Origin: Lingula anatina
Lineage: Eukaryota > Animalia > Brachiopoda
Direction: 5' to 3'
Assembly (NCBI GenBank): GCA_051362555.1
Contig: CM120645.1
Location: forward strand, 12,896,001 to 12,960,000
Length of the DNA stretch: 64,000 nt
Under the pieces are notes generated by a model. It saw nothing but the letters and a program-made list of their open reading frames with translations, was not told where the DNA came from and ran no database searches. The translations under genes were made by a program, and so were the position numbers. How positions within the stretch are numbered: the first letter of the stretch is position 1; the number at the start of each line of letters is the position of its first letter. Below, one piece after another: positions 14,194 through 60,700 of the stretch.

Positions 14194-14225
<32 letters not shown>

Positions 14226-23381: not shown

Positions 23382-26300
23382 AAAGACCAAGACCTTTAAA
23401 TTTGCTAGTTATGGGCCTGGTTAGAATTAGATAGTTCTTTTATCTTACCCAAACATATCGTTCATATGATTTCTTTTCTTTTATTTATTTTATTTTCTAT
23501 CTATTATTATTTTTTGCACTTAATTATACCTAGACCTAAGTAAAGAATTAACTTAACGGTGAAAGATCAAAGGTACGACTTTAAGAGATTTATTCAACTT
23601 CTGGCTTCGGATCTTTTTGAAAGATATGCCAAAACAATATATCCTAAATCTTTAAAAGTGGTAAAATCAAAATTGAAAATAAATAAATTGGTTCCTTTGT
23701 ATATTATAGAATGTAACGTGCCCGATGTTTCTCATTCGAGTCGAAATCCAACTACTGTCCGTGTCAACAGTCAAGACAGTGTTACCTACACGTGTGTTAC
23801 ACCTCCATATATCCATATATACGGTTCTCTTAAAATCACGTGTACTGATAGAGAGGATGTGTTTGATATGGAACCTCCAACATGTGGGCGTGAGTATTTC
23901 TTCTCTGTGGATTACTTTCTTTGCAAATTTTCTTGAATTCGATGTGCTATACTTTATCTTTGTTATCAAAGCCAGATATAAATTTTTTCAAATAAAATTG
24001 TAGCTTTTTACACCACATTTTCTGGAATATCCGCATAACAGTATATTCAGGGTTTAACTTAACAATACATGTAGATTGCTCTGAGAGTGGCCTGGGTTTA
24101 GAGCGAAATATATATTAACATCGACCCGCTTTTGTTTGGCGAACATTTTATGGCTTAAATTGGGATTTGTAGAAGTTTTCATACGCAGTGTCCCCTTTGA
24201 TTTGGCAACAGTTATCCACCAAGTAACCAAGGTTTCGGGAGAGAAGTTGATGATAAAATGGGTATAACGAATACAAGAATGCGACTCGGTTGCATTGAAA
24301 TTGAAATATATGTTAATATATTTCTTTTCCAATAAAGATGTGTAACTCAAAGGGCGCATGCAGTGCACCCATTATTATTGATGTAGTAAACGTGAGGGCA
24401 TGTAACACTAACAAATATATTGCTGAAAGTCTTCTATTTCTTTCAGTGCCAGAATACGTGTTGTATGTATATGAGAACAGGGGCGTCAGTGGAGGCTCAT
24501 GGAAGCTTTATAAACCATTATCCCGCTGTTTACAGGCCTGTAACGATGACCCAACATGTGACGCAGTGGACTGGGATGGGTGGTGTTGGTTCCATTACAG
24601 TTCTACTTCGTGCGGTGACCTTACCTTTGGCAATCTGAGTCACTATCAAATGAAACAGTGTCCTGGTAAGATACAATTTGAAACGATTTATCTGTCATTT
24701 TTTTAACTTTGTGCTTATAATCTTATTGGTGGAGATGAATAAGGGATTTAAGTAAAGTAAGACATTATGTTGGGAAATTAAAAATAGATTACGGATAAGA
24801 ATACCTAGAAGAGACTAGAATACGATAGCATATATAATATACCCAACACCAGTTACAAATTAGCTATTGACGTGATCACAAATTATCTTTGGTTATCCAG
24901 CAGATCTTGGTATATCGGTACTAGCATATCAACAAGCTGTAACATACAGTATGATTTAATTATTCTTAGGTAATCCCGCCTACAACTGTCCCTGCTCTAC
25001 GGGAGGTACGTGTGTGAGAACATACACCTCACCGACACAGATATCTTCAGAGGAGTGTGTGTGTAACCTGGGACGTACTGGTGACGAGTGTTCTGGTTGT
25101 GAGTGGGACTTTGATTTATATTGTTATTTGCCACACTACATAATTGAGATTGAATCGAAGCATCTCCTGTGCAAAAGATGTAGTGTATCGCATCGGATAC
25201 ATTAATACATGTATGTGTCTGAAAATGTTACGCCTTAGATGGAAAAATGTGATGCAATCTATTTATAAAAACCCTTACAACTGTTTCAAAATTAAACAGC
25301 GTACACATGGAGCACACGAATGGTCCCATCTTGAAATTAGAATTTTGACTAGCTGAATCATAGTTATAAAATATACCAAATTCCACCGTTTGCCTTTTAA
25401 AATACCAAATAATTTCGGGGCCCTTCAGCGTGCCCCGAACCACACGCCAAGGGGAGGGGGGCGTCGACTTCGCATAAGCGGACCCCCCTTCAAATAATCC
25501 TGGATCCGCCCCTGAAAGATATCACTATTGCATTTATCATGAACATCTTCTAATACAAATGAAATATATAAATAATACATTAAATGTAAGGGGAAATCAT
25601 CAATATATTATAAGGTTCTTTGTGCAGCCAAGTGGTCACTATTGCGACTGATGGATTTCTTTACAGACATGCACTTTGTTTTTAGTTGTGGAATGCACTG
25701 CTCCGACTTTTCCCAATGCAGCTCCCTCTCCAGTACCTGGAGGTTACAGATTTAATACCACTGTTACCTATACTTGCAACAGTGGGTATCAACTCAGAGA
25801 TGGTTCTGGTAACAGTTTCACACTGACTTGCGGTCCTCGAGGAACGTTTAAAGGGGAGAGAAAAATATGCAACAGTAAGTCAAAAAGACATCAATGTTAC
25901 AAAATAAGAACAGATTAATAATTCGAAATGAAATAGTCGCCCGCAAGTTTGGACCTTATTACGATTATGCTTCTGGGGATAATTATTGTCGGTGTTATTA
26001 GGCTTTGAATATAGTCAAGTGAAATGAAGATATTAAAAAAATTACTCCACTTCCAGGAACCTGTGACCATCCTGTAAGTGATCATCTGAGACAGGTAACA
26101 CATCGTTACATTACCTTTGAAGGACAAACTGTCACGTATACGTGCAGCACTGGCTTCCAATTCAACGACACGTCAACGGTAAAGAACCTTACTTGTCAAG
26201 CCAATGGAACATTTGACCAGAGTTTACCTAGCTGTATTCTCATATCGTGTGGTTTTCCTACTGGTAAATTAAACTTGAAGGCAGAAGAAGGACCATATAA

Positions 26301-28116
26301 ACACAAACAGCATGTGACATTTTCCTGCATTCCTGGATATCATTTCGCTGGCTATGACGTCGACTCACCATTTACGTCACAATGCATTGCGACTGAAACT
26401 CTGGAACCGCCAATACCTGACTGCATAAAGAGAACATGTAGTTTACCTCATTTAAACAATACAGTGACATATTCTGATAGCACGAATTTATTCTTCATGG
26501 CTTCAGTTCAATTCGAATGCATTAAAGGATTTCAATTTCCGGATGGTAATACCAGTGTAACCTTGATATGTGATGAAACCGGTGGATTTGGGGTGGATTC
26601 TCTTAGTTGTTCAGGTACGGGTTTTAATGAATATTTATAAAGTAATAAGCACTAGTACACTGAGAATCAGAGTAATTAGTGCGTTGTGCGCTCTGTCACA
26701 TAGATACGTTTAATTCAGGTTTTCTGCGCAGAGATGGAAAGGTATTCTAAAAACTGGTTGAGGAGATGATTTTTATAAATCCTTTTTCAAAAGAAATTTG
26801 TTAGTCGCGAATGCATATGAAATATTATATGCCACTGTAGAGGAAATTATTGTAATATAGTTTACCTAGTTTCAGGTAAAATTAGGGCAAAAATTACTTA
26901 TAGAGAAACTTCGCTATCTAGTGGAAAATATTTAAAGCTTACCTGTTTCCTTTTTACCATTCAGCGGTGTTGCCTGGTGCTGGCACCCAAGCCGCATTCA
27001 CAGACCCTAACAATAGTAACGTTGGTGTTAGTGTTGGTGTTGGCGTTACTGGGGCGATAGTGCTGATATTACTTGTTGTAACAGTTGTTGTATTCGTCAA
27101 ACGAAGACGGTAAGTGGCAACAAACCATACTGAGTTGTTTTATTTTATTTCTGTTAAAGTTAGTGATAGGGACGCACAATACATGTACAGGGTATATGTA
27201 AGAATGAAAATAGCGTTTACACTGTATAATAAATGAATGAGAAACTGGAGAAGTTGTCAGCATTTTACCTGTCATGCAACAACATTATAAAATATTACAC
27301 GTCCCACGAACCATATAATTAACACATTCCCTTTAATATTTATCCTTTAATGCATTTGCACTGGTGCACGTTGATGGTATCATTAAAATGTTTATATATC
27401 CGCCATGATCTATAAATTCGTTGGTTTTTAGATTTGTCTTTACATAAATATTGATATTCTACTCAACTTTTGTCTTTAACCTACTGGCTTATAATAGATA
27501 GGCCTACAGTTCTTACTTGAGGAGTTGCAAGTGTCTTTTTTTTTTTTTTGTTCGATTGATACATTTATTTATTTTTTTTGCGTTTAACGCATTGATTAGT
27601 AAATGGAACATTTTTCGTTTCAGGAAACAGATGTCAAACTCAAATGAAGATATCAATGTATCAAGAAACGGAGACCTCAGCAACACAATGTACACAGCAC
27701 CCAACACATATGTTGACACAAATCCATACGAACTCGAGGGAGAATGTCCAATGACAGACCGTTATGATCAGTCAAATAATATGAGACAGAATTCTAATAA
27801 CGAAAACCAGGCCTCTGATTCCAAGATGAACGTACAGGACCTATATGCCGTGCCAGACAAATCCAAAAAGACCAAAAAAGACAAGAAGCAACAAAATACC
27901 CCTGCAAGCTATCCAGACGATGCGTATGAATATGTCAAGAAACCTTCTGCCCAAGCATCTTCCGTTTCAAGACAGGATTGCAGTAGCACCTATGAACTTG
28001 CAGGGCAGTTTCAAAACGGAGGCTATGCCCAGTCTATCGATGATGCTGATGACGTGGAGTTTGTTGAAAACGATATTTATGAAACAGGAGGCGTTGACAA
28101 CATGGGCTATGCGTAA
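22577..28116 (+). CDS. Gene B: sushi-PAN-EGF-4x sushi-TM receptor with long (class II) Tyr-rich tail, ~662 aa
   Basis: GT-AG exons: 22577-22652 (signal peptide MKGLSNILKSSMIFCLIRGWQGIDA), 23710-23889 (sushi), 24447-24665 (PAN: CLQACNDDPTCDAVDWDGWCWFH..HYQMKQCP), 24970-25098 (EGF), 25686-25874 (sushi), 26057-26614 (3 sushi), 26965-27109 (TM VGVSVGVGVTGAIVLILLVVTVVVFVKRR), 27624-28116 (tail). The joined frame is open. Confidence 0.88.
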
Positions 28117-29015
28117 GATGAGTCAGTTGAAAACGACATTTTTAATTCTTCGGTGTAATTTCATTTTAGACCAGTTGCGGTCTTTTATGTTTCATATTTG
28201 GAAACCTGCTGATCTCAGTGCTTGCGCTACTGGTATGTTGGGACAAAAATGCCTATTATGGTGATTTGCTCCAACATACAAAATGTTCTTCATGATGTAA
28301 AGTTCAGCTGAGAAGCACTTTCTGGAAAACTTATGTAAGCCTATGTTCTGTATCCAAAGTTTGCTTACAGCGAAAATCCGTTTTTACCAACGATGATGTA
28401 TGTGGAGACTAAAAATTCGAAATCACAAATGGACAATAACCTGAAAAACTCCTTGTTAAGATATAGTTATGTACTTTTGTATAGAAATAAGCTCTACAAT
28501 TTTGTGGTGTTCAACGTCAAAGGATTTAGACTAATAGATATCCATAAAAACTGAGCTGTGATGACTTTATTGAAACTTTCTTCACCCATAAACATGTTGT
28601 ATATGGTGATTGTACATGATCATGGATTTCCTTATTAGTCAAATATTTAAATTTTTCCTCATTTAGTGATTGTTTCTAATAAAATCAAAGTATACTTGGT
28701 AGGTGACTTATAGGTGGAATAGACCGGGTATAAATGACAACATTAGTCTCTATGTTAAATTCATTACTACCTTTACCTCAGATGAAAATGAGTATTGTGA
28801 TATTTTTTACTGATGCACAGTATTATACAACAAATCCGAGATATATATTATGCCAATGGAAGCTAAAAGCAAAACACGTATGTAAATAACATGAAACATT
28901 CCACAAATAAATTAAAAATTAGTGGCATGTTGTCTAACAAAAATTAATAAAAACACTTGAAACTTCTTTGTTGCACGAGTGCAATTCGACTGTTAGTGGA
29001 AAAAGACATGTCTAA

Positions 29016-29809: not shown

Positions 29810-32800
29810 CTAGTCCTGATATATAACAGAGACTGATGGTTGTCGTTGATTACTTTCGTTTGCTGGCATGTCAAGAGCAGTATATGCACTGTCACTGACG
29901 TTAGCGTATTCAACCACGTTGTCATCTCTTGCCATAGTTTTGGCCTCCAGTGACATATACTCGTGATCCCTAGCAGCACTACCTGGCGGATTCAAACTGT
30001 TTTGGTTCAAACCAGAGGTGTCGCTGTGATCTGTGTCAGCAAACGGCTGAGAAGTGGGACTCCGTGTTCTGAATTCAAACGAAATTCAACAAGAAAAATT
30101 CTTAATTATTACCCCAAAAAAGTTTAAGAGCTGTAAAACATAACATCATGTATATTTAAAATAAGATCATCTTTGACTAAGAATAAATTTAAGATATTTT
30201 TTTTATTAAACAGAATCTGGTTATAACAAAAATGCCTTGCACTCTGATTACAAGCTTTATATTTTAGAACTTTGGTTTTACACTGTTATTTGTGTAATAC
30301 AATATCCTATTTTAATATTTCAAACATTATTTTCAAAAAAAAGAAAAAAAATCTTTGAAACCCCGAAGCTGCTACGTGTTAATAAATTATGTTTTAGCAG
30401 CTTTAGTAGGCGTGTCAGACATCTAAGCCACTTATGCTGATTGCAATTTAGCGAGAATCCACTTGAAAATGGGTCAATCCTGTCAGATCGAACAACACAC
30501 ACTGGACAATAGAAGTGTCACCCCTACTGAAACAATACTTTGGGGGAGATAAATGACTATGGAATGATATGCTCCTGGTATCATTTTATTAACATCAAAT
30601 TTCACAAAACGACCAACTATACAATTCCATGGTACAGCGGTTTTATACGCATTGGTCACATTATAAGTAGACCAGGCATTATAACTTTGATTACTCTGAA
30701 TCAGGGTGTGACACTTCTATTGTCCAATGTGTGTAGGTATGGGATCCCAGTTCGACTGACCTTTTTATGACAACCACAACTACCCCAACTAAGATCAGTA
30801 CCACTGCTGTAGATATCCAGCCACTGATGGCAACAGCCACAGGTACTTGTCCTAAAAAATATTACAGAGATTAAATTTACATTACAGTTGAGTTTATAGA
30901 CACTTCTATTTGATTTCAGTACATATTATATGCCGAATAAAAGACTGCAAGTTATATCTTATCTCAGTTACTTATTTTTGTGTTCCATTCATGTAAGTGC
31001 AGCTGGCTTTGCTCTTTTACTTAACACATAACACCCCAATAACTTGTTTTAATTTTTTATCATCATTCTCATATCATTACCTGTCAGTGCTTCTGGTGTG
31101 ACTTCTTCTCTTTGAATGACTGAAAATAAATAAATAAATGATTCATTTCGAAGGACATTTTATGGCTTTTGTTGTAATTATACAAACATTTTTCTCTTAT
31201 ACAAAGTGTGTGGCCATCACTTTTCGTTTATTTCGTTTATTTATTTACTAAAATGCGTTTTATCTTCTCATTCATACCAATTTCAAATTTCGCTTCATAA
31301 TACTTTCAAAAATTATTTTCTGACATTTTACGTCCAGTTTTTGCATTTCCCCAATTTTTTTCATGATGTTCGTATGTAAAAGCCTTTTAAATGAGCACGA
31401 ACTGGTCAATTTTCCTAGACATTTTATCACTCTCCTTAATGACTTAGTTATTCACATGAGTTCATGTAAAATTATAATCCATTACCGGATTTGAGTCACA
31501 CTTGTGATGGAGATTTAAACCGGTGGATTCCGCTTGTGATATTAAAATGATAGTAAGAAAAAAGGGATTTTGAACGAAGACGAATTCACGTATTGTAATT
31601 TTTCTGAGTGGGTCTAGATATATCATGGCGATTAAAGAAAAATGCTGAAATTTCCCAAGATAAATGTCTTTACTACATTGCCTTTATTTAATGCAACGTG
31701 AAAACAAACGAAGAGATGAAAAAAAAACGTCACATTTTGTCAGCACACATATGGACCTTCTACTACCAAACTCAAATTGAACTTACCAGGAGATCCACAC
31801 GATACGGGAACACAGCTAGGTAAACTCTGGTCAAATGTACCATCGGGTTGGCATGTTAGGTTCTTTACTGTTGAAGTGTTGTTGAATTGGAAGCCGGTGT
31901 TGCATGTATATGTGACAGTTTGTCCTTCAAAGGTAACGGAACGCTGTGTTATCTGTCTCTGATGATCACCTAAAGGAAGGACTTCACAGGTTCCTAGAAG
32001 TGGAGCAAAATTTTTCAACTTCTATTGCTATAACCTATTGCAGTTTAATGGTGTTGAGAACAAATATACACCAAATTACCACTAAAAGCATAACTGCATT
32101 TAAGATCAACCTAAAGAAAACGTCGACTTCTTTCATAATTTATGTTATCAATTTTCTATTTGATGTCTTCTTGATTTCAGGCTTACTCATGCATGTTTTT
32201 CTCTCCCCTTCAAACGATCCTCTGAGACTGCAAGTCAGTGTGAAACTGGAACCAGAACCATCGGCGAGTTGATACCCAATGTTACAGTTATAGGTAATAT
32301 TCCTTCCAAACCTGTAACCCCCAGTTGGTAGAGTGGGTGCTGCGTTGGAAATAGCCGGGGCAGCACATTCCACGTCTAAAAATATAGTGAATGTCTGTAA
32401 CGAAATCAATCCATGGCAACAATGGTGTAAAGGCGTTACTTCTGTAACAATTTGTTCAACTGTCCCCGATATGCTTTTATGGGCCTGTTCAGAAACAAGT
32501 TGATCCAACTGATCCCCGTAACAAATATATAGGTAAACCCCATGGAAGCTTTCCGTTTTTTCCTTAAATGGATTCTTCGCGGGTTCAAGTGGGTGGGCCA
32601 TATTTGAACCACGGATCTCTTAGTCAGCGGATCAACTTTGTTCTGAACAGGCCCTGATGAGACCATTTAAAAGAATATCATAAATATAAGGGTTAAATTA
32701 ATAATGAACCAACATTTTTACATTTTCTATATTACAGGATATCCGTCATATAAATCGTGTATTTCATTTTTATTGGAAGACATTCATGGTAGGGTAGACC

Positions 32801-40821: not shown

Positions 40822-43800
40822 ATGAAAAGACTGTCGAGCATAAAATATTTTCTGATATTTTGTTTACTTCGTGGATGGCAAGGAAGCCACGCAGGTAAGT
40901 GGAACAAATCTTCACACCCCGACCCCCCAACACCCAATAAATAATTGAATAAATAAAAAGCACGACATGAGACAAAATAGCAGCACATTCTCTATTCCCG
41001 TGCCCTGCATATTACAATGAAACTGTCCTTCTCTACTGATTTATGTATCATAGAAAATGTAAGTTCTTTTCATTCATGTTCCCTCCCCTTTTTACAGCTT
41101 AGCAAAATCCTGGATCATGCAGTGCGTGCGTTTACTTATTTCAGAAGTTCAAAAGATTGTTCTTAAAGATGATATTGTTTCGAATGGTAATTGCTTATTT
41201 TGAGTCAGACGGGACACTGCATGGTCTCACCTATAATTTCTCAAGGGGAGTGGTCGCGGCCCCCAAATTTATGAAAAGTTTATACCGTCAATACACAGAT
41301 AAGAACTGATGTAAGTGGCAACTATTTCAGCACCTTATGTTTGTGGCTGGTGACTATTTGTCTGCGAAACTCTGTCCGCCGAACATTGGTGATACAATCT
41401 GATTGTTCGTTTATCTTACCCACACACACATAGTTTACATGATCTATATCTTTTACTTTTTTGTACACTCAGTTTCGACCAATGTAAAGCACTAATTAAC
41501 GTTGCAAGCTTAAAGGCATTACTTTTACAGGGTGATTAACTTCTACCTTCGGACTTGATTTTGAAAGACAAGAAAAATAGTCTACGTTGTCATATATCTT
41601 ACATCTTTAAAAGTGGAAAATTCAAAATTAAAACCAATTATTCCCCATTTTGTATGGCAGGTTGTGTCGTGCCAGAAGTTCCTCTTTCAAGTCGAACTCC
41701 AACTGATGCCCGTGTAAACAGTCAGCAAAGTGTTACCTACACGTGTGTTACTCCTCCTTATATCCATATATACGGTTCTCTTACAATCACGTGTACTGAC
41801 AGAGAGGATGTGTTTGATAAGGAACCACCAGTATGTGGAAGTGAGTATGTTTTTCTTTCTTTTTTTTTTGTGGGTATTGTGCTGCAGATAACTATTGAAT
41901 AAAAAGGAATGACTTTCGTTAATAATTTGAATACGATGTGAGATTCTTTCACACTACATTATGTAAATTATGAAAGAAAATTTTAAAAAGGTACATCTCT
42001 AAACATTGTTAGCTATGTATCCGTACACCGGTGTATTCAGGATTTCACGTGGGGTAGGGTCGAAGGAGGCATTGGTTTGGGGCGGCAAATTATTGCATTA
42101 ATCCGCTTTTCGTTCTCTTCTTGGCATGAAATGGATTCCGAGAAGTTTGCATATATCCAATGTCGCCTTTAATTTGGCCACTACAGGATACAACCAGTTA
42201 TATCAATCAGTTTGACAGGGGGTTGGGGTTGGTCGATAGACAAGGCATACCGAATACAAGACTGTGACTCGGTTGTGTTGAACTTAAATATATTTTAGAA
42301 CTTTCTTTTCCAATATAGAGGTGTGACTCAAACGGCTTATATAATGCAAACCTCGTTATTTCTGTAGAAAAAGGTGAGAGCAACTGTCTCTTACCTCATA
42401 CATAATTATTATATTTTAATTAAAATTCTGAAAATCTTCTGTTTCAGTTCCAGAGTACGTGTTGTATCTATATGGAAATAAAAGCATCAGCGGAGGCGAA
42501 TGGAAGAGTAATTGGCCACTATCCCGCTGTTTACAGGCCTGTAACGATGACCCAACGTGTGAGGCAGTTGACTTTAATGGACGGTGCTGGTTTCATTACA
42601 GTTCTTCGTCGTGCAATGGATTAAGATTTTGAAGCAATGTTCGTTATTATCAAATGAAACAATGTCCTGGTAAGATGCAAAACCGAAACTATTTTTTGTT
42701 CCATTTCTTTAGATATTTTTATTCATTTATTTTATAAATTTTATTTTTGCTTATTATCTCATGGAAGTGAATAGGGGCCCTAAGTAAAGTAAGATAAGGT
42801 ATTGATGAACTAAAGACGGCTTTGGTGTGTCATAGAATACGGTCTATATCTGTGAAACATACCCAACACCTTTCAGAAATTATCTACTTACGTAATCACA
42901 TAATCGTATATTATACAGCAGATCCCGTATTACCAAAATGTGACCAAAGACATGGTTTGTTTCCTTCAGGTAATCCCGCCTACATCTGCCCCTGCTCTAC
43001 GGGAGGAACGTGTGTGAGAACATACAGTTCTGAAATACGGGTATCTTCAGAGGAGTGTGTGTGTAACCTGGGACGTACCGGTTCCCAGTGTCTTGGCTGT
43101 AAGTGGGACTTTGATTTCCTTTGTTATTTGACACACTTTTAATTAAAATTATTGAGATCAAAATACAACATCGCCTGTTCATAGATACGTAGATTATTGC
43201 GTCGGCTACATAAATATGAGTCTAAAAATGTTACGCTTTGGATAGAAAAAAGTGACTCTTTATATATAAATTAAACGGAATACACATAGAACTCAACCCT
43301 CAAAGATATCGCTCTTGCCTTAACGATAAGGAAATAAGGAGCTATTCTTCATCCATTAATTAACGTAATCTAATACATTTGAAATGAATACATTACACAT
43401 GTAAGTGCACCAAATTGTCATTTTTTCATTACCATTGCGATGGGTTTCCGTACAGACATAAACTTTGTTTTTAGATGTGGAATGCACTGCCGCGACTTTT
43501 CCCAATGCAGCTCCCTCTCCGGTAACTGGAGTTTACAGATTTGGAAGCACTGTTACCTATACTTGCAACAGTGGGTATCAACTCAGCGATGGTTCTGGTT
43601 CCAGTTTCACACTGAATTGCAATCTTAGGGGAACGTTTGAAGGGGAGAGAAAAACATGCACCAGTAAGTCTGATGTCAAAAAGACATCAAAATTTAAAGA
43701 ATAAGAACAGATTGATAATTCAAAATGAAATAGTCGGCTGCAGGTTGGTCCTTATTACGATCATGCTTCTGGGCATATTTATTGTCGGTGTTATTAGACT

Positions 43801-45808
43801 CTGAATAAAAGTGAGATGAAGATATTAAAATAATGACTCCACTTCCAGGAACCTGTGTCCTTCCTGTAAGTGATCACTTGAAGCAGGTAACACAGCGTTC
43901 CGTTACCTTTGAGGGACAAACTGTCAGATATACATGTAATACTGGCTTCCAATTCAACGACACGTCAACGGTAAAGATCCTTACTTGCCAACCCGATGGT
44001 ACATTTGACCAAAGTTTACCTAGCTGTATTCCTATATTGTGTGGTTTTCCAACTGGTAAATTCAACCTAAAGGCAGAGGGAGGACCATATAATTACAAAC
44101 AGAATGTGACGTTTTCTTGCATTCCTGGATATCATTTGGTTGGTTATAACGTAAACGCGGCGTTTACGTCACAATGCATTGCGACTAACACCCTGGAACC
44201 GCCAATACCTGACTGCATAAAAGGAAAGTGTGTTTTACCTCATTTAAACAACACGGTAGCGAGATCTAAAAGAAAGGATCAGTTCTTCCTGACATCAGTT
44301 GAGTTCAAATGCATGACAGGATTTCGATTCTCGGATGGTAATACCAGTGTCACCTTGACGTGTGATGAAACCGGTGGATTTGGGGTGGATTCTCTGAGTT
44401 GTACAGGTACGTGTATTAAGTGATGTGTATAGTTGATGTCCTCTCCAATCTCCACGCGGATTCAATCGGTCAGACTGGTCTCTTCAATTAAAAACATTGG
44501 CCACTATGATACCCTTATGGGTACGCGTGATCCTGTATAATACTGTTATAGTTTTTGTTGAAATACTTTTTGCTATATATGGTTAATTGTTACATTTGTG
44601 CAACGTTTGTATTTATACTTAAGAAAATGATTAAATGATAAACCACTTGACGTATTTTCATACGGAATTTAAGGTTTATTTTCATGGAAAATTAGCTATC
44701 TAGTAAAGCAAAAAAGAAAAATAATTGATAACGCTTTTTTTTTCAATTTTGCCATTCAGAGGCGTTTCCTGAAGCTGTTGCAAAGGCTGCATCTGCAGAT
44801 TTCTACATTGGTGTCAGCGTTGGCGTGGGCGTTACTGGAGCGATAGTGCTGATATTACTTGTTTTCACAATCGGTGTATTCATCAAACGTAGACGGTAAG
44901 TGCCATGGTACCATTAAAGAAATGTTGTTCGATGGGAATGAATTAAATTACATTAAAAATGTTTTATTCTGATCAAACGTAACGATAAAGAGTTTGTGAA
45001 GAGTAAAAGGGAGACTGTTTACGACCGCTGTGAATCAAAACTTTACGTGTGATATATCATAGCAGTATAAATACTACATTTCACACGAACCATTTCTATC
45101 TATAACTGTGTTTCCTGTAAGATAGATTAAGACGTATTTATTTCCATACTATACAAAATTGTTATGCATTTGGCCCATCTTGACGTTTCGGTTAATTATC
45201 TCCCCCATGATGAATAAATTAATGTGTTCTTAGATTTTCTTTTGGGCAATGCTCACACATTTCGAATTTTGATATTCATCCTCCTACCTCTCGTATGCCC
45301 TCAACCTATTAGCTGATAAGTGGTACATGTGAACTATTGTTTTTCGTTTCCACTCAGAAAACAGTGCGCCGCCTCTAAGCCGCCCAAGGCCATTAACGCT
45401 GATCACAGCAACATCTCGGAGTTATACCAAAACAGTCGGCCCGACAGTGCCGAGCGCGAATATATGTCACTTGAGGCCAATACTATGGCAACAGTTAACA
45501 ACGTGGCTGAGTATGCTAACGTCAATGACAGCGATTATACTGTTCTTCGCACTGCAGCAAACGAAACTAACAATATGCATCCAACATCTGCTAACGCGGA
45601 TCACTGCGACAACTCAGAGTTATACCAAAACAGTTTGAGTCAGCCAGACAGTGCTGATAGGGATCACGAGTATATGTCACTGATACCAAAACTATGGCAA
45701 CAGATAATAATGTGGTTGAATATGCTAACGTCAAGGACAGCGCATATACTGCTCTTTGCATGTCAGCAAGCGAAACTAATCAACATCATCCGTCAGCTGC
45801 TGGAGTAG
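40822..45808 (+). pseudogene. Gene D: same receptor family, with a premature stop in the PAN exon and a frameshifted duplicated tail
   Basis: Exons 40822-40894, 41661-41840, 42448-42669 (TGA at 42630-42632 where E/F have GTA), 42970-43098, 43475-43663, 43849-44406, 44760-44895 and 45358-45808. The tail unit is duplicated, and the second copy shifts frame after EYMSL (~45682). Confidence 0.75.
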
Positions 45809-46599
45809 GCCTATATCAGAACGAAGTGTTAATTATTTAAGCCTATGTGCCTAATGGTACTAGACTAGACTAGACTGCGTCATATAATATGTCATTTTTT
45901 TGCAGAATGTATGCCATAACACAGGGCTTGTAGAGAAAACAGGTGTTATGTACCTATGAGGCTTCCCATGGTACCTAGTCCTGACCCCACGTGTACAGGA
46001 CAGCCCTTTCCGAAAATTTGACCCACTTACGCCACGCTAACCTTAACCTATGTGAATATAATTGAGGGCAAATTCTTTATATTTCTATATTCTTCTTCTA
46101 CTGACAATGAAATTGTGCTCGTGGAACATAGAAATCTCACGTTTTTAATATTATGCTACCTGTATGATCAGTTGTAATATTATTTGCGGTTCATTATTGT
46201 GAAATATTTCATTTTATGAACAGTTCATGTTTTGCTTTGAGTTTATATCACGCATAATATATTCTTCGACTTTATTGTACTATAATGTACGCCAGTAAAG
46301 TATAACAATACTCATTATTTACATCTGAAGTAATGGTAGTAGTTCACTCATTCTAGAGATTTATATTGTCATTTTTTTGCTGTCTATTGTACATAAATGT
46401 ATACGTCATCTACCTGTTCTGTATAATCAAGATGGTTATTTGCTTATTTTAGAGTTTATTATCAAAATAAACAGCCATGCCTATGACAAACTCACATTTT
46501 AGCCACTTTTGCAATATTCCATGCATATGCTAACATACATTTACCAAACGTATTTAGAGTATAAAAAAGATGAGTAATATATCATATTGTTCTTCGTGT

Positions 46600-49724: not shown

Positions 49725-49755
<31 letters not shown>

Positions 49756-52700
49756 ATAGAATGCGCGACATGAGACAAAAGAGGAAAACATTCTCCATTC
49801 GTTTGCCCTGCATATTACAATAAAAACATCATTTTCTACTGATTTATGTATTTTAGCAGATGCAAGGCGAAGCACTCTTCATTCATTTCCCCTCCCCCTT
49901 TTACATCTTACCAAAATCCTGGATCATACAGCGCATGCGTTTACTTACTTCAAAAGTTCAATTATTTTGCATGGTAGTTACTATGTTGAGTCTGACTAGA
50001 AAGGGAAGTGGTTGCGGCAACAGAATTTACGAAATAGTTATCCCCGCCAATAAACGGGTTTTATGAAACTACCTTGTATTTTCATTACGTTATGTTTGTG
50101 ACTGGTGATTTTATTTATCTGCGATACTCTGTCTGCCGAACACTGGTGATACTCAGATTCTATAATTTCTAGAAGGCAATGCATTCGCAAAAAATGGGAT
50201 TAGATTGTACCTTTATCTTACCCAGTCACATAGTAGACATGATTTATATCTTTTACTTTTTTGTACACCCAGTAAAGCACTAATTGACGTTGAAAGCCTA
50301 ATGACATTACTTTCACAGGGTTATTCAACTTCTACCTTCGGGCCTGATTTTGATATACAAGAAAATAGTCTACGTTGACATATTTCTTACATCTTAAAAA
50401 GTGTAAAATTCAAAAATAAAACTAATTATTCATCATTTTGTATTGAAGGTTGTGTCGTGCCTAACGTTCCTCATTCGAGACGAACTCCAACTGCTGTCCG
50501 TGTGAACAGTCACCAAAGTGTTACCTACACGTGTGTTACTCCTCGATATCTCCAAATATACGGTTCTCTTACAATCACGTGCACTGACAGAGAGAATGCG
50601 TTTGATAGGGAACCGCCAGTATGTGGATGTGAGTATTCCTATTTTGTGGATATTGTGCTGGAGAATACTACCGAATAAAAAAAAGGTTTTCTTTAATAAT
50701 TTTCTTGAATATGATGTGGAATATTTTATCTACAATGCATTGTGTAGAACTGTGGAAACCGTGAAGGCAACTACCCTGTAACTCTAACCTCAAACATATA
50801 TATTTCTGAAAATCTTCTGTTTCAGTGCCAGAGTACGTGTTGTATGCATATGAAAATATAAGCATCAGCGGAGGCTCGCGGAACAGTTATTGGCCACTAT
50901 CCCGCTGTTTACAGGCCTGTAACGAAGACCCAGCATGTGAGGCAGTGGACTGGGATGGAAGGTGTTGGTTTCTTTACAGTTCATCGTCGTGCAATGGATT
51001 AAGATTTGTAAGCAACGTTCGTCACTATCAAATGAAACAATGTCCTGGTAAGATGCAAATCGAAATGATTTTTAGTTCACCATTTTATTTAGATATTTAT
51101 TTATTTATTTATTTTATTTCATTAATTTTTCTTTTTGCATATTATCTCATGGAAGTGAATGGGAGGCCTAAGTAAAGTAAGTTAAAGTATTGAGAAAGTA
51201 AAAATGACGTCCGTGTGTCATAGAATACGGTCAATATCTTTGAAATACACCCAACACCATTTAGAAATGAGCTATACTTACGTAATCACAAATACTCGTT
51301 AATTATCCAGCAGCTTCCTTTATTAGCTAAGAAGTTACCAAAGACTCGATTTGCTTACATCAGGTAATCCCGCCTACAACTGCCCCTGCTCTACTGGAGG
51401 AACGTGTACAAGAACATATACCTCATGGACACAGATATCTTCACAAATACAGGTACCTTCAGAGGAGTGTGTGTGTAACCTGGGACGTACTGGTGACCAG
51501 TGTCTTGGTTGTGAGTGGGACTTTGGTTTTTATTGTTATTTGTCACACTACATAATTGAGATCGAATCCGAGCATCGCCTGTACAAAAGGTGCGTCCATG
51601 TAGTTTATTGTATCGGCTACATGAATATGTGTCTGAAAATGTTACGCCTTAGACAGAAAAATGTGATGCCAACTACATGTATTTACGAAAACCCTTACAC
51701 ATGTTTCAAAATTAAACAGCATATGCATACACGTGGATCACACAAATGGTCCCCTCTTGAAATTAGAATTTTGAATATCTGAATCATAGTTACATGTATA
51801 AAATGTACCAAATGGCATCGTTTGCCTTTTAAAATACCAAAAAAATTCGGGGCACGCTGAAGGGGAGGGGGGCGTCGGCTTCGCATAAGCAGACCCCCCT
51901 TCAAATAATCCTGGATCCGCCTCTTAAGATATCGCTATTACATTTATCATGAACGTCTTCTAATACAAATAAAATTAATAAATAATACATTAAATGTAAG
52001 GGGAAATCATCAATATATAAGTTTTTTGTGCAACCAAGTGGTTACTATTGCGACTGATGGATTTCTTTACAGATATGCACTTTGTTTTTAGATGTGAAAT
52101 GCAATACTCCGACTTTTCCCAATGCAGCCCCCTCTCCAGTACCTGGAGGTTACATATTTAAAAGCACTGTTACCTATACTTGTAACAGTGGGTATCAACT
52201 CAGAGATGGTTCTGGTAACAGTTTCACACTGACTTGCGGTCCTAGAGGAACGTTTGAAGGGGAGAGAAAAACATGCAACAGTAAGTCAAAAAGACAACAA
52301 TGTTACAAAATAAGAACAGATTAATAATTCGAAATGAAATAGTCGGCTGCAGGTTGGCCCTTATTACGATTATGCTTCTGGGGATAATTATTGTCGGTGT
52401 TATTAGGCTTTGAATATACTCAAGTGAAATGAAGATATTAAAAAATTACTCCACTTCCAGGAACCTGTGACCTTCCTGTAAGTGATCACCTGAGACAGGT
52501 AACACAGCGTTCCGTTACCTTTGAAGGACAAACTGCCACATATACATGCGTCACTGGCTTTCAATTCAACGACGCGTCAACAGTAAAGAACCTAACTTGT
52601 CAAGCCGATGGTACATTTGATCAGAGTTTGCCTAGCTGTGTTCCCATATCGTGTGCATTTCCTACCAGTAAATTAAACTTGAAGACAGTAGAAGGACCAT

Positions 52701-54015
52701 ATGTTTACATGCAGAATGTGACGTTTTCTTGCATTCCTGGATATCATTTCGCTGGTTATGACGTCGACGCGCCATTTACGTCACAATGCATCGCTACTGA
52801 AACTCTGGAACCGCCAATACCTGACTGCATAAAAAGAACATGTGTTTTACCTCATTTAAACAACACGGTAGTGAGATCTCAAAGAGAGGATCTGTTCTTC
52901 ATGACATCAGCTGAATTCAAATGCATGCAAGGATTTCGATTCCCGGATGGTAATACCAGTATAACCTTGATATGTGATGAAACTGGTGGATTTGGGGTGG
53001 ATTCTCTGAGTTGTACAGGTACGTATTAAGGGATGTGTATAGTGGGTGTCCTCTTGGATCCCCATGCAGATTGACTTGGTCAGACAGGTGTCTTCAATTA
53101 AAAACATTGCCCACTATAATACAATGATGCTCTGGGTACGTGTGATCCTGTATAATGCTGTTATAGTTTTTGTTGAAATACTTTTTGCTACATATTAGGT
53201 TACTTGTTACATTTGTGTCACGTTTGTATTTATATTCATAAAATGATTAAATGATAAACCACTTGACGTATTTTCATACGAAATATAAGGTTTATTTTCG
53301 TGGAAAATTTGCTATCTAGTAAGGCAAAAAAGAAAAATGATTGATAATTTTTTTTCAATTTTGCCATTCAGAGACGTTGCCTGAAGCTGGTGCCAAGGCA
53401 GGATCCGCAGACCCTAACATTGGTGTCAGTGTTGGTGTGGGCGTTACTGGAGCGATAGTGTTGATATTAATTGCTGTTATAATTGTTGTATTCATCAAAT
53501 GTAGACGGTTAGTGGTGTAGTACCATTAAAATCTTGTTTTATGTATTTCTATCAAAAATAGCGATAGAGGGTTTGTGTATAATAAAAGGGAGATGTTTAT
53601 GACATCTGTGATTGAAAACTTGACGTGTGATATATTATAGCAGTATAAACGCAACATGTCACACGAATATTCCTCCTCCCTATCGTTCTTCCTTCAACCC
53701 ACTTGCTGATAATTAGTAAATGTGAACTATTGTATTTTGTTTCTATTCAGAAAACAATGCTACGCTTCCCAGTCGTCCAAGGCCGTTAACGCTGATCTAA
53801 GCGGCACCTCAGAGTTATACCAAAACAGTTTGAGTCCGCCAGACAGTGCTGAGCGCGAGTATATGTCACTGGAGGCCAATACTATGGCAACAGTTAGCAG
53901 CGTGGCTGAATATGCCAACGTCAATGACAGCACATATACTGCTCTTTGCATGTCAGCAAACGAAGCCAAACAACGACATCCAACAGCTGCTGGTGTATAT
54001 CAGAACGAAGTGTAA
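49550..54015 (+). CDS. Gene E: sushi-PAN-EGF-4x sushi-TM receptor with class I tail, ~590 aa
   Basis: Exons 49550-49625, 50449-50628, 50826-51047, 51364-51510, 52092-52280, 52461-53018, 53372-53507 and 53751-54015 (tail ELYQNS..EYMSL..EYANV..STYTAL..VYQNEV*). All are GT-AG and the frame is open. Confidence 0.88.
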
Positions 54016-55877
54016 AAATTAAGAACTTACATTCACGCATAACTTACATGTGTGCATTTTAATGTTAAAACATCCCCCTTCAAACTATTAAATAAAGAAG
54101 TTAACAATCATTATATTATTGTGACCAAGGAGTGGTAAGAGGTGAATATTTTTAAAAAAATTTAACAACAGATGGATGATATATCTTTGCTCACTATCAT
54201 AAACTGAGACCAACAAAGAAGGTTCCGTTGAAATATCCAATGATTGCATCTCCCAGAATATCTTTCTCGTCATTGAGTAGAACATTTCCAGCAGAATAAT
54301 GTTGTATAATAATACATCCAAGAACCTAATGAAGCTGTGCCACAGAATTACATGGATAGTGAAGGATGGATGGTACATATATATATGGCGATGAAGGATC
54401 GAGTTCAATCTAAACGTGACAAATAATGTTTATGATATAATTGAGTTACATACTTTAAAAAGTTTTCTTTGTCATATTTGGGTAACCTATTTTTATCATT
54501 GTGCTTATGATGTGGGTTACGTCAAAAACATTCTTCGTCAAGTTCATATTGACCCCTTTCATCTTTATATATTATCTTATATCATCCACCACTTTTAGTT
54601 CTTGCACTTCTCAGACAGGTTCTGCTCCGTTAGTTCCCTTAATGTATTATATCCTGAATAAAAAATTTGGAAAAAAAACATCTTCATGTCACGCTTGCAT
54701 GTCCTCCAAGGCAAGAAAATCAAGCGGTTGACGGACGTCTTCAATTTGCTATTTTACCAAATACTTGTATATGTGGGCCTATGCAACATTTTGAACAATT
54801 CTGTATAATAATTAAACATAAACATGCTGAAATATATAATTTTATTATCAAATATAGTTCGTAGGGTTGATGTACTTTTAAAAAGAGATATCAAAACCCA
54901 AATCACAAAAGACGAGCAACCGACTGTGTATCATGATTAAGGAGGTAGGGGTAAATTTTGACGTGTAGGTGACCAATCTGAAGTCAAGGTGCGTATTATA
55001 TTATACCAAAAGAAGGTCAACAATAAAAGTTATTTTTATGTATCAAACTTGCCATTCAGATGAAGCATATTAAGTGCGTGAAATAAAATATGGGTCAGCT
55101 CTAAACGATTTTGAGTAAAATGGGCCTATTTTTCACGTTTTTATGAGACATGATGGTTAAACTGGTTTTATATTGTAATTTATGGATAGAAAAATAGAGA
55201 AATGCAATTTTCGAAGCCTTTGGTACGTCAAGAGGGGCAAATGCCACGAAACATATGCAAAAAAGATGCTAAAAATATGTAATTTTCAAATATCTTAAAC
55301 TTCAGAGGGTATGTACAGGGGGGTAAAGGGGTTTTAAAATTCTTTAAAAAGCACTGTTATATCTTTTAAGATTCATTACAAAATGTTCAGGGAAGTACAA
55401 AAAGTAAGCACTGTCCCCCCCCCCCCCCCCCCCATATTGCGCAGATTTAACTCAATAAGGAAGTACGTCGCATGCTTTTTACTTCAATGTGAACTCGATT
55501 CACATCCACTACGTACGCACACGGTAAATATACGTCTGTTGTAAATTAACAATTGAGATGGTGTGATGCTATTACAATATTTAAATCCACTGAAGGTACA
55601 AATTAAGACAAAAGAAAAAAACGGCTTACGCAAGGAAAAGTGTGAAAATAGTATGTGCTCTGACTGCTCTCAAAGAAAAGTACCTGTAAAGAACATTAAG
55701 CTGTTGCATTAAAATTTAAACTTTTTATCATCAACTTCTGCAATGTGAACAAACAACAGTGCGATATCTTCATATATTACAGGGCAGTGTCAACAGAGGT
55801 TGGTACCATTGTTATTCGTGTTTAGCTTTCCCCCCTAAGCAGCTTTGTTGTTAACACGGAGCTACACCGTGCTTGGT

Positions 55878-56160
55878 GTAAAATATAAAATGGGTCACTT
55901 CCTTGTTCACAAAACTCCGCAGATACGCACCTAGGCCTCGCCACACTTTTACAAGCCTTCCTTATCTTTTTAAGGTCATTCAACAGAGAGAAATTTGGCT
56001 ATAGGAGAACTAGGGTTAGTATAATACCGGTTACATGTACATGTGCTATATTCAGTTCATGTAAGGAGCAGAAAAGGGAAGATGTTCGGAAAGCATTGAT
56101 GTAGATTGATCAGGATTGAATCGTGTCTTTGATAGTGTATGAGTGCCTAGGCAGGTAAGT
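55878..56160 (+). promoter_or_regulatory. Putative promoter/5' UTR exon of gene F
   Basis: tataaaatgggtcacttccttg and donor cag|gtaagt at 56154. Confidence 0.5.
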
Positions 56161-57574
56161 GTAAATGTTTTGTACAGTAAGTGACATGTTCTATTTAGCC
56201 TGAACCGTATTTCTCTCAAATTTTACCGACGTTATAAGGCCTACGGTGTATGTACATGTATACTAATTAGAGACCGCGTCATTACGATTTGTCACCAGCC
56301 TACAGTACCTGTGGCAGAAGGGCGACACAACGATTAGATTGTCTTCTCTGGTGAGACATCTTAATAACACGACTTAAAGGCAGGGGGTGGAGATACCAGT
56401 ACAACCTAGGTTTATAAATTAAAGCCTTTTTACTGTGAGCGTTATGTCTTGTACCCGTTTTCAAATAGGGTAGTATACGGACTGGACCTGTTCAATTTAA
56501 TATATAGGTTCTAAATTGTATTTTCGGTACGGGTTTTTTTTTTTTTTTTTTTTTTTTACTCTCTTTCATCAGCCTACCCACAAGTTCAATTCCTACTGTT
56601 AAGGGGGAGGGGAATGGAGTTTAGGTGACTCTTATACGAAATAGACAAGCTATCAAATTGCTTAAAACATACTGGTACAGGTGAGTCGCTTTAAAAATGT
56701 CTTTGATTTGGCAGTGGTGGCTTTGAAAACAAATGACCATGGAGGACGAACACTCTTTGAAAAAGATCGGTCCGTCTGTTTGTTTTTTAAGTTTGTCTGT
56801 TACATGTAGCACTGTACAGGTCGCAGTTTTGATCAAATCACTTCCATTTTCCCTGAAGGGGTACAGTGTATCCAAACAAGTATGTGACAGGACGTTTTTG
56901 GGGTCATTCGGTGCATTTTCACGTGAGAAGTAGCAATAAGATGCTCTACTTCTGGAAGTGCAAAAGCTCTTGCTTGTTGCATTTTGTAGATCATGTCAAG
57001 CGCAACACTGATATGTGGCGTCCGTTTTTCCCCAAACGCTTTAGGAGATGCGCTATTTTAAAAAAGTATACGTCGCAATGTTCAGTGGTGAGCAATGGTG
57101 GAAATTATATCACCAGAACCGGCACATATATCCCCTGAGTACTATATTACACTGAATTTGAATAGGAACTCATATATTGACAATCCTACTGTGACCTTGA
57201 ATTTGACCTTTGACTTTCTTTTCACCATGGCCTGAACATTCCAGCCCTTATATTTCCAAAACTGGCAAAGGTACTACCATTATCACACATGTTACTTATC
57301 ACATTTATGCATACAATTACACTTGTATGATAGCAATACGAATAAGAAGTCACACATGAGCTTTTATTTAAGTATCTTCAAGATCACATCCGAATCCGCT
57401 TGTTTTTTCTGTCTTTTTATATTGCTCTTATTGTCGGTGGTTGTTTCATAAGTGTTTACACGTCAGTGTGATTTTTCATTTTATTGTTTATATGCCGTTT
57501 ATTAAATAATGTATTTACCTATTTATTCAGCTATTTATTTATTACATAAAGCTGTACATAGTAAGTGTTTGTTT

Positions 57575-57609
<35 letters not shown>

Positions 57610-57785: not shown

Positions 57786-60700
57786 ATGATGGAAGGACTG
57801 TCGAGCATTTTAAGATCATCTCTGATATTTTGTTTACTTCGTGGATGGCAAGGAAGCCAAGCAAGTAAGTGGAACCAGGTACTTTGTACGTGTACGCCCT
57901 TTCTCCTCTCCCAACTCTACTCCCCCATCCCCCATCTCCCCAAAAAATAATTAAATAAATAAAATGCGCGACAGGAGACAAAAGAAGAACACATTCTCCA
58001 TTCGTGTGCCCTGCATATTTCAATAAGCATCCTTCTCTACTGAATTATGTGGTTTAGCAGATGCAAGGCGAACCACTCTTCATTCATTTCCCCGCCCCCT
58101 TTTACATCTCTCAAAATCCTGGATCATACAGTGCATGCGTTTACTTATTTCAAAAATTTAAGATTGTTGTCTTTTTGCATGGTAGTTACTATGTTGAGTT
58201 TGACTAAAAACCGTTGTCACCCAGAATTTCTCCTGGGAATCGAAGTGGTTTCGGCACCAGGATTTACGAAATAGTTTTCCCCGCCAATAAACGGGTTTTA
58301 TGTAACTATTTTCATTACGTTATGTTTGTGACTGGTGACTTTATTTATCTGCGATACTCTGTCTGCCGAACACTGGTGATTCTCAGATACTATAATTTCT
58401 AAAAGGCAATGCATACGCAAAAAATAGGATTAGATTGTACGTTTATCTTACCCAGTCACATAGATGACATAGTTTATATCGTTTACTTTTTTGTACACCC
58501 AGTAAAGCACTAAATGACGTTGAAAGCCTAAAGACATTACTTTCACAGGGTTATTCAACTTCTACCTTCGGGCCTGATTTTGAAAAACAAGAAAAATAGT
58601 CTACGTTGACATATTTCTTACATCTTTAAAAGTGGAAAATTCAAAATTGAAACCAATTATTCATCATTTTGAATTACAGGTTGTGTAGTGCCTAACGTTC
58701 CTCATTCGAGACGAACTCCAGCTGCTGTCCGTGTGAACAGTCACCAAAGTGTTATCTACACGTGTGTTACTCCTCCATATATCCATATATACGGTTCTCT
58801 TACAATTACGTGTACTGACAGAGAGGATGTGTTTGATAGGGAACCGCCAGTATGTGGATGTGAGTATTCCCATGTTGTGGATATTGTGCTGGAGATTACT
58901 ACTGAATAAAAAACAAAGGTTTTCTTTAATAATTTTTTTGAATATGATGTGGAATATTTTATCTACAATGCATTGTGTAGAACTGCATGTGGAAACCGTG
59001 AAGGCAACTAACTCTAACCTCAAACATATATATTTCTGAAAATCTTCTGTTTCAGTGCCAGAGTACGTGTTGTATGCATATGAAAATATAAGCATCAGCG
59101 GAGGCTTACAGAACAGTTATTGGCCATTATCCCGCTGTTTACAGGCCTGTAACGAAGACCCAGCATGTGAGGCGGTGGACTGGGATGGAAGGTGTTGGTT
59201 TCTTTACAGTTCTTCGTCGTGCAATGGATTAAGATTTGTAAGCAACGTTCGTCACTATCAAATGAAACAATGTCCTGGTAAGATGCAAATCGAAATGATT
59301 TTTTAGTTCACCATTTTATTAAGATATTTATTTATTTATTTATTTATTTATTTTATTTCATTAATTTTTCTTTTTGCATATTATCTCATGGAAGTGAATG
59401 GGAGGCCTAAGTAAAGTAAGTTAAAGTATTGAGAAAGTAAAAATGACGTCGGTGTGTCATAGAATACGGTCAATATCTATGAAATACACCCAACACCATT
59501 TAGAAATTACCTACTTACGTAATCACAAATACTCGTTAATAATCCAGCAGCTTCCTTTATTACCTAAGAAATTACCAAAGACTCGATTTGTTTCCATCAG
59601 GTAATCCCGCCTACAACTGCCCTTGCTCTACTGGAGGAACGTGTATAAGAACATACACCTCATGGACACAGATACCAGTATTTTCACAGGAGTGTGTGTG
59701 TAACCTGGGACGTAATGGTTACCAGTGTCTTGGTTGTAAGTGGGACTTTGGTTTTTATTGTTATTTGTCACACTACATAATTGAGATCGAATCCAAGCAT
59801 CGCCTGTACAAAAGGTGTGTCCATGTAGTTTATTTTATCGGCTACACGAATATGTGTCTGAAAATGTTACGCCTTAGATAGAAAAATGGTTGCAAACTAT
59901 TTATAAAAATCCTTACAACTGTTTCAAAATTAAACAGCATACACATGGACTACACGAATGGTCCCCTCTTGAAATTAGAATTTTGACTAGCTGAATCATA
60001 GTTATAAAATATACCAAATTCCACCGTTTGCCTTTTAAAATACCAAATAATTTCGGGGCCCTTCAGCGTGCCCCGAACCACACGCCAAGGGGAGGGGGGC
60101 GTCGGCTTCGCATAAGCGGACCCCCCTTCAAATAATCCTGGATCCGCCCTGAAAGATATCACTATTGCATTTATCATGAAGATCTTATAATACAAATGAA
60201 ATTAATAAATAATACATTAAATGTAAGGGGAAATCATCAATATAGTATAAGGTTCTTTGTGCAGCCAAGTGGTCACTATTGCGACTGATGGATTTCTTTA
60301 CAGACATGCACTTTGTTTTTAGTTGTGGAATGCACTGCTCCGACTTTTCCCAATGCAGCTCCCTCTCCAGTACCTGGAGGTTACAGATTTAATAGCACTG
60401 TTACCTATACTTGTAACAGTGGGTATCAACTCAGAGATGGTTCTGGTAACAGTTTCACACTGACTTGCGGTCCTCGAGGAACGTTTAAAGGGGAGAGAAA
60501 AAAATGCAACAGTAAGTCAAAAAGACATCAATGTTACAAAATAAGAACAGATTAATAATTCGAAATGAAATAGTCGCCTGCAGGTTGGCCCTTATTACGA
60601 TTATGCTTCTGGGGATAATTATTGTCGGTGTTATCAGGCTTTGAATATACTCAAGTGAAATGAAGATATTAAAAAATTACTCCACTTCCAGGAACCTGTG

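Follow-up and report, generated by a model that had tools for sequence, protein, structure and literature searches.

A 64,000-nucleotide stretch of the genome of the brachiopod Lingula anatina (assembly GCA_051362555.1, contig CM120645.1, positions 12,896,001 to 12,960,000 of the forward strand; hereafter the window) was found by exon mapping and six-frame translation to carry six paralogous genes, named A to F, each with a PAN/apple-like exon. Exon mapping gave an encoded layout of signal peptide, Sushi0, PAN, EGF, Sushi1, Sushi2-4, transmembrane segment (TM) and tyrosine-rich tail, and the products are predicted to be cell-surface receptors. Matches of the Sushi domains in Pfam were firm (E 2e-14 and 2.8e-08), and those of the EGF and PAN domains were weak. 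Open spliced frames run through B, C, E and F, and on the evidence of the exons four copies are predicted to be intact and two, A and D, to be broken (Table 1).

Table 1. Predicted features of the receptor cluster, numbered from the first base of the window (SP, signal peptide; aa, amino acids of the spliced frame)
Feature	Position	Strand	Exons and remarks
Copy A, short form	6847..16433	-	SP 16358-16433; Sushi0 15634-15813; PAN 14803-15027; EGF 14409-14540
Copy A, remaining exons		-	broken Sushi1; Sushi2 8351-8542; stalk 8188-8226; TM 7865-7955; type-2 tail from 7276
Copy A, PAN loops		-	loop 1 14957-14998; loop 2 14828-14857
Copy B, intact, 662 aa	22577..28116	+	SP 22577-22652; Sushi0 23710-23889; PAN 24447-24665; EGF 24970-25098
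Copy B, remaining exons		+	Sushi1 25686-25874; Sushi2-4 26057-26614; TM 26965-27109; type-1 tail 27624-28116
Copy B, PAN loops		+	loop 1 24476-24517; loop 2 24614-24640
B-F shared tract, ~740 bp (EGF-Sushi1 intron, Sushi1 exon, next intron)	25330..26068	+	14 mismatches to F
Copy C, intact short form, 462 aa	29810..37523	-	SP 37448-37523; Sushi0 37010-37189; PAN 34525-34743; EGF 34170-34298
Copy C, remaining exons		-	Sushi1 32187-32375; Sushi2 31787-31993; stalk 31081-31119; TM 30761-30851; type-2 tail 29810-30068
Copy C, PAN loops		-	loop 1 34673-34714; loop 2 34550-34579
Copy D	40822..45832	+	PAN 42448-42669; loop 1 42477-42518; loop 2 42615-42644
Copy E, intact, 590 aa	49550..54015	+	PAN 50826-51047; loop 1 50855-50896; loop 2 50993-51022; type-2 tail 53751-54015
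Copy F, intact, 677 aa, mosaic	57786..62759	+	PAN 59056-59277; loop 1 59085-59126; loop 2 59223-59252; tail 62225-62759
Conserved upstream block	20023-21477, 38401-39113, 47558-49001, 55427-56758		includes the spaces between the head-to-head pairs A/B and C/D

The Sushi1 exon of copy A is interrupted by ~4.4 kb of other DNA and is partly deleted, while its PAN acceptor reads AC in place of the usual AG, with an in-frame AG 6 nt further on. Rescue of copy A by skipping of the Sushi1 exon was considered and rejected because a stop is created at the EGF/Sushi2 joint, and the gene is likely to be a pseudogene. The unrelated DNA within this exon (8767-13160) bears an inverted repeat of 107 bp near its ends (arms at ~9103-9200 and ~12836-12941, 72% alike); a Pfam search of four open frames inside it gave no match for any of them, and the insertion is possibly an old mobile element. 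Copy D carries two lesions, an in-frame TGA at 42630-42632 in loop 2 of the PAN domain, arising from two adjacent bases swapped relative to E and F, and, near 45684, a frameshift that affects the type-2 tail, and is likewise a likely pseudogene.

Copies A and C are short forms. Their Sushi2 exon stops early, at minus-strand positions 31787 (C) and 8351 (A), where a GT that is not used as a donor in the long copies is followed by a 39-bp stalk exon and a different TM exon. As judged from these exons, the short and long receptor forms derive from one ancestral exon. An extra cysteine is kept in C ahead of the new Sushi2 donor. In copy F, a 48-bp tandem duplication (61207-61309) repeats the end and donor of the Sushi2-4 exon, thereby offering a possible second in-frame donor.

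The closest proteins were L. anatina RefSeq models, namely P0001 (XP_013399600) and P0002 (XP_013384001), 69% and 63% identical in the PAN domain, followed by a distant paralog of the same layout, P0121 (XP_013388999; 32% in PAN). Partial models P0003, P0004, P0080 and P0139 also belong to the family, as do the L. anatina accessions XP_013383993, XP_013399599 and XP_013415543. These models, several of them partial, carry between them PAN-like, EGF and Sushi domains, a TM and both of the tail types described below, and none is identical to a window copy. Their automatic names are 'SVEP1-like' or 'uncharacterized'. The hallmarks of SVEP1 are a VWA domain, a pentraxin domain and a long secreted Sushi array. 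An SVEP1 identity was rejected, Pfam having found Sushi and weak PAN matches with no VWA or pentraxin in P0001, P0002 and P0121, all of which have a TM and a tail. Only these three matched the PAN profile among the 166 proteins gathered, in a collection where the 50%-cluster search from P0001 was dominated by Sushi arrays.

A preliminary description of this DNA, made from its letters alone, had pointed to hypervariable loops set within a conserved cysteine scaffold of the PAN domain. All the strings that it quoted (six for loop 1, four for loop 2, and the core motifs LSRCLQACN and YQMKQC) were recovered by six-frame translation; six cysteines are constant in all six copies, copy A adding a seventh within loop 2, and the variation is concentrated in two segments. 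Together these segments hold 69% of the amino-acid diversity of the PAN exon within 24 of its 73 columns. The best 14+10 columns account for 13.47 of 19.4 units of summed pairwise diversity against a permutation mean of 9.76, a value matched in 0 of 3000 permutations, the windows having been picked in the data after the fact and the copy D row being cut at its stop. The same post hoc choice of windows in four other exons gave a nonsynonymous divergence (dN) of 0.14-0.21 against 0.48 in PAN. Since neither the permutations nor the other exons ever reached the PAN value, the clustering of the loops is real.

Some details of the preliminary description had to be amended. Its core motifs are invariant among the window copies but not in the relative P0002, which has LSHCLKACN and YQMKRC, and the span of 24447..59277 that it gave for A to F leaves out the PAN exon of copy A, which, like copy C, is encoded on the minus strand. 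Loop 2 is common to D, E and F, and the six copies therefore amount to about four loop types; the in-frame TGA of D in this loop had been passed over. The PAN exons of E and F differ at 6 nt, of which three are synonymous and three give SR>LQ in loop 1 (codons 17-18), the sole amino-acid change between them, exactly as described. Not every loop position varies, as a GG pair in loop 1 is the same in all copies, and variation also extends beyond the loops, to position 45 (R/W/D). N-glycosylation sequons shift with the PAN loops (position 10 in D, E and F, position 18 in C and position 62 in B) and could shield or shape the variable face.

A PAN-like fold is well supported by the sum of several lines, each of them weak. 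Pfam PAN_1 was matched in 7 of 9 aligned members, with a best E of 4.7e-05 (the P0121 stretch or another member), whereas the window copies scored 14.5-17 bits against a curated cut-off of 21.4 and copy B gave no match. The CxxxC helix and two downstream cysteines are present (C27, C31, C37 and C46 in all copies, joined by C55 and C71), and we infer that these cysteines pair as disulfides. AlphaFold2 models built from 8 and 9 sequences reached predicted local distance difference test (pLDDT) values of 57.7 and 49.6, the second being the worse, with loop 2 under 50; at this low confidence they place strands near 4-9, 16-23, 37-42, 45-49 and 65-70 and a helix at 24-33, in the order strand-strand-helix-strand-strand-strand. 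Foldseek gave no match at E 0.001, and its first 16 matches (E ~1) were all PAN/apple-bearing, comprising entries for HGF, MIC4, plasminogen, SRK, factor XI, AMA1 and SML-2. The first three matches in the Atlas were PAN clusters (0.94-0.95), and a sequence search of the PDB with the PAN profile returned nothing better than E 2.7 and 5.4. Two results weigh against the recognition-receptor reading given below: VIA-align reached a Z of 4.1 at best with thyroglobulin top-ranked, and the models, at the pLDDT values given above, are too poor to gauge surface clustering. Of the mapping of variable sites that had been proposed for an AlphaFold model, the placement of the loops was obtained, in coil or a short strand and in parts of low confidence.

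The L1 and L5 insertions of PAN domains would lie together on one face of the PAN surface. In the low-confidence models loop 1 falls between strand 1 and the helix and loop 2 between strands 4 and 5, and the two variable segments would correspond to these L1 and L5 insertions. Passages of PMC9024836 describe two-stranded insertions in L1 and L5 of canonical PAN/apple domains, differences in L1 and L5 among PAN domains generally, and PAN domains as general mediators of protein and carbohydrate contacts.

The proposal that the loops form a ligand-binding surface under diversifying selection was assessed with codon models run as custom scripts (F3x4, FastTree topologies, 8-class beta, naive posteriors) on a sample of six sequences and about four loop types. 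By the Nei-Gojobori method, dN in the loops was 0.48 against a background synonymous divergence (dS) of 0.23, a ratio of 2.11 (bootstrap 1.47-3.01), or 1.68 (1.12-2.43) when the loops were defined from the model. Background dS was considered a fair yardstick because synonymous divergence at unchanged residues is equal, at 0.15, in the PAN core and in the other exons. In simulations of neutral loops, with 600 runs for each setting, 0-2.7% came up to the dN that was observed; where PAN-core dS set the scale, its own error is not taken into account. Plain site models favoured selection (M1a/M2a p=0.006, M7/M8 p=0.003) and flagged codons 17 and 18, and a joint maximum-likelihood fit of Sushi0-PAN-EGF gave a loop dN/dS (omega) of 1.73 (p=0.003). 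The loops of the pairs B-D, B-E and B-F differ by 0.38-0.41 against 0.17-0.23 in their alignable flanking introns, a comparison in which local alignment favours the conserved intron parts; divergence of the D-E and D-F loops is 0.12 and not above that of their introns (0.15-0.17).

Other results weigh against this proposal. A dN/dS of 1 or less in the loops had been named as the outcome that would refute it, and with the loops' own dS the ratio was 0.92 for the six copies and 0.63-0.65 for subsets, which read literally is that outcome. A fixed loop class inside the exon gave an omega of 1.45 (p=0.11), and other settings gave 1.13-1.52, none of them significant. Support from M2a fell to p=0.34 with multi-nucleotide changes, 0.32 with rate variation and 0.96 with both, and the joint fit with the extended terms gave an omega of 1.39 (p=0.12); omission of either term is, according to PMC10336034, a known source of false positives. 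When the model, and not variability, set the loop boundaries, the joint test gave p=0.08-0.85 in all six runs, and site-model support without the broken copy A was p=0.02-0.09. Residues new to P0001 numbered 3/24 in the loops and 6/49 outside (p=0.62), and those new to P0002 8/24 and 10/49 (p=0.18). The EGF exon gave a comparable site signal (M2a p=0.013), and as Sushi1 has an overall omega of 0.89-0.94, fast change is not unique to PAN. Models with a faster rate and with a higher omega fit equally, and the data do not separate the two. Overall, the PAN core is constrained (omega ~0.2) and the loops are at or somewhat above neutral; positive selection on them is suggestive only and weakly supported, and we place diversifying selection at about even odds. 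Beside the PAN domain, the EGF loop after RTYTS has one codon that reads E/P/Q/E/W/W over the copies (M2a posterior 1.0) and carries a 2-residue insertion in F and a 6-residue one in E (EGF exons 51364-51510 and 59601-59735, for example), and is a possible third variable site.

Mosaicism, which the preliminary description had missed, is, as read from the alignments, a stronger feature of the cluster than selection on the loops. Among B, D, E and F, 218 informative sites fall into 66 runs where 125 would be expected, with none of 20000 permutations as low; the runs test does not separate conversion from unequal crossing-over. Copy F sides with E over Sushi0, PAN and EGF and again in Sushi2, and with B in the EGF-Sushi1 intron, in Sushi1 and from the TM onward. 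Its identity to E is 71/73 amino acids in PAN, 52/59 in Sushi0 and 165/185 in Sushi2-4, and its identity to B is 60/62 in Sushi1 and 142/178 in the type-1 tail. The tract shared by B and F probably arose by gene conversion, and the PAN exons of these two copies are, unlike the tract, only 81% identical. E and F are neighbours that differ by 11% over 3.6 kb and have unrelated tail exons. Among the relatives, P0002 (type 2) and P0004 (type 1) are identical at 122 of 131 residues (93%) over two Sushi domains, the P0004 model being without the PAN part; the records of both proteins give a contig of 490344 bases. Little was resolved by protein trees of PAN and Sushi2, which together had one starred branch.

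The cytoplasmic tails are of two exon types, between which BLASTP found no match at E 10. Type-2 tails belong to A, C, D, E, P0001 to P0003 and P0139, and type-1 tails to B, F, P0004 and P0080. In type-2 tails YxxL/V motifs exceed the shuffled expectation, and the consensus of the immunoreceptor tyrosine-based inhibitory motif (ITIM) was present in all seven that were scored, these being homologous and hence not independent, with A read by eye only. The consensus occurs twice in copy C and once in copy E, and it is above chance in C, P0001, P0002 and P0003 (P 0.003-0.03). Type-1 tails have 10-12 tyrosines with YxxP and acidic tyrosine motifs, and the ITIM consensus was found in none of the four. 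Some of these counts weigh against a pair of opposed signalling tails: the single ITIMs of D (P 0.24) and E (P 0.18) are not above chance alone, nor is the count in P0139; none of the four type-1 tails has an immunoreceptor tyrosine-based activation motif (ITAM); and the TM segments of B and F are free of charged residues. The tail of P0121 contains an ITAM-like pair, YESL-x10-YDSL, which makes this protein a candidate for an activating role in the wider family.

Evidence of expression came from RNA reads mapped on the Sushi0-PAN-EGF part of copy B only, using about a quarter of run X17, which yielded 208 reads that cover exons only and are spliced. The PAN-EGF joint was read directly, and other joints were seen as loose ends of family reads. 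Three reads were at least 99% alike to B, 12 were 95-99% alike and the rest were below 95%, and with so few at 95% or more, most reads stem from other alleles or copies. Both flanks of 24576-24639, and not its inside, are matched by eleven reads, depth over loop 2 falling from ~35 to ~11. A loose-end consensus (8 reads, agreement 0.79) reads by eye as ISGGTQKGYR, a new loop 1, absent from P0001, P0002 and all six window copies. The shares of runs X11 and X14 that were used (~6% of each) gave 0 reads and are too small to count as a test. The family is therefore transcribed and spliced in one RNA run, with loop variants beyond those of the six copies; the reads mix alleles and paralogs. In run X2 the summed depth of contigs is ~955 over the PAN core and 54-132 in most bins of intron, with no contig spanning two loop-1 places, figures that amount neither to a copy number nor to proof of absence.

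Outside the genes, a non-coding block of 0.6-1.3 kb, kept at 70-82%, lies upstream of B, D, E and F; it could have a regulatory role common to these genes or be an exon that has escaped recognition. A 450-bp repeat (82% identity) occurs at 11-459 and 28546-28993, the second copy just downstream of B.

The architecture, the clustering of the loops, the loss of genes, the exchange of blocks and the two unrelated tail exons are seen in the DNA itself. We put at about one in two the probability that this tandem family of single-pass membrane receptors is a birth-and-death cluster of recognition receptors, in which the PAN segments would set binding and the tyrosine tail would signal. The two variable segments, raised on the Sushi stalk, would be specificity sites, and at about even odds they would have changed faster than neutral through favoured differences in binding specificity, the ligands being likely non-self molecules. 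Conversion would reshuffle binding fronts and tails, such that E and F would bind alike and signal differently, with type-2 tails recruiting phosphatases and type-1 tails recruiting adaptors. A bolder proposal, tentative and on balance unlikely, is a brachiopod paired-receptor system built on PAN, with L1 and L5 used as antibody-style loops and with conversion repeatedly joining one front now to an inhibitory tail with ITIMs (E, P0002), now to a non-ITIM tail that recruits adaptors (F, P0004), which would give opposite responses to one ligand.

Each of these proposals has to be weighed against the loops being tolerant surface insertions that drift near-neutrally, by block changes, indels and short conversion tracts, on a constrained core in a decaying or redundant array. 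Such drift, somewhat unlikely in our estimate, would account for the omega of 0.92 with local dS, for the failure to reject an omega of 1 in the loops under models with multi-nucleotide or rate-variation terms, for the equal fit of the faster-rate and higher-omega models, for two of six copies being broken and for the lack of loop enrichment in the hold-out relatives P0001 and P0002. The sources of false positives in PMC10336034 and the general variability of L1 and L5 described in the cited passages of PMC9024836 agree with it. It fits less well with loops that stand about twofold above both intron and background synonymous divergence when Sushi and EGF exon loops reach a dN of 0.21 at most, and with the only amino-acid changes between E and F falling at the two most variable codons, an observation that is not independent of the site test. 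Moreover, multi-nucleotide terms may absorb true selection in a small sample.

The loops could also be true specificity sites for a ligand outside immunity, used in contact with the matrix, in the recognition of gametes or in the adhesion of cells, and the copies could each serve a particular tissue. Membrane proteins with Sushi and EGF domains figure in reviews of gamete recognition. The breadth of PAN contacts noted above (PMC9024836) would allow for this role, as would the presence of reads in only one of three RNA studies, two of them sampled at ~6%; but turnover of genes, conversion, and the exchange of tails that carry the ITIM consensus make up the pattern of immune and allorecognition clusters in passages of PMC12065747 and PMC13358205, and we consider a non-immune role quite improbable. 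That some copies are artefacts of assembly, either alleles placed in tandem or base errors behind the D stop and the F mosaic, is extremely improbable. The adjacent-base swap in D would suit such an error, and the reads were compared with copy B only; against it stand the divergence of E and F with their unrelated tail exons, the two separate lesions of D, the fact that independent L. anatina proteins show the short stalk form as well as each of the tail types, and contigs of run X2 that match the introns of B with 0-6 differences.

The known diversified recognition receptors of invertebrates mostly vary immunoglobulin (Ig), lectin, SRCR, fibrinogen or LRR domains. If A to F are recognition receptors as proposed, PAN would be an independent scaffold for diversified recognition, swapped between ITIM-type and other tyrosine tails, and paired-receptor logic would operate in a phylum with barely described immunity; if the loops are only relaxed, this is an ordinary tandem family. 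E and F, which are two PAN residues and a whole tail apart, lend themselves to paired tests of specificity and of signal sign. The literature searched, with supplements (possible Lingula gene-family tables) and most subscription papers outside its scope, held no description of this family or of animal receptors with hypervariable PAN loops, and no paper combining brachiopod, immune receptor and ITIM.

Among known systems, AMA1, MIC4, SML-2, the HGF N domain, the factor XI apple domain and the PAN domain of plant SRK share the predicted fold, and in AMA1, according to passages of PMC2323298, the ligand site is surrounded by polymorphic loops that project from a PAN scaffold. The AMA1 variants, however, are alleles that evade antibodies and sit on two PAN domains in tandem, while here an animal receptor with a single small PAN domain varies between its paralogs. 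The fester/FcoR receptors of Botryllus, as portrayed in parts of PMC12065747, are clustered polymorphic type I receptors with Sushi domains and ITIM, hemITAM or core YxxI/L/V tails, which evolve by birth and death with motif swapping and ITIM/hemITAM switching. The Lingula cluster resembles them in its clustered Sushi-bearing receptors with ITIM-type and other tyrosine tails. It differs in that Ig domains vary there and PAN here, and in that Lingula is solitary; Pfam found no match to an Ig family, a feature of fester/FcoR and Alr, in the exons or the relatives. Closest in logic are the paired receptors, which are outlined in parts of PMC13358205 as linked genes whose near-identical ligand-facing domains are homogenised by conversion and whose tails differ, with an ITIM on one. 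E/F and P0002/P0004 are like these in joining nearly the same front to different tails, and E/F also in adjacency and in exchange of sequence, but both pairs use PAN, EGF and Sushi in place of Ig or C-type lectin domains, and their non-ITIM partner has a long tyrosine-rich tail with neither an ITAM nor a charged TM residue. Because this partner lacks the activating feature, we class the cluster not as a paired-receptor family, but only as one that would work like it.

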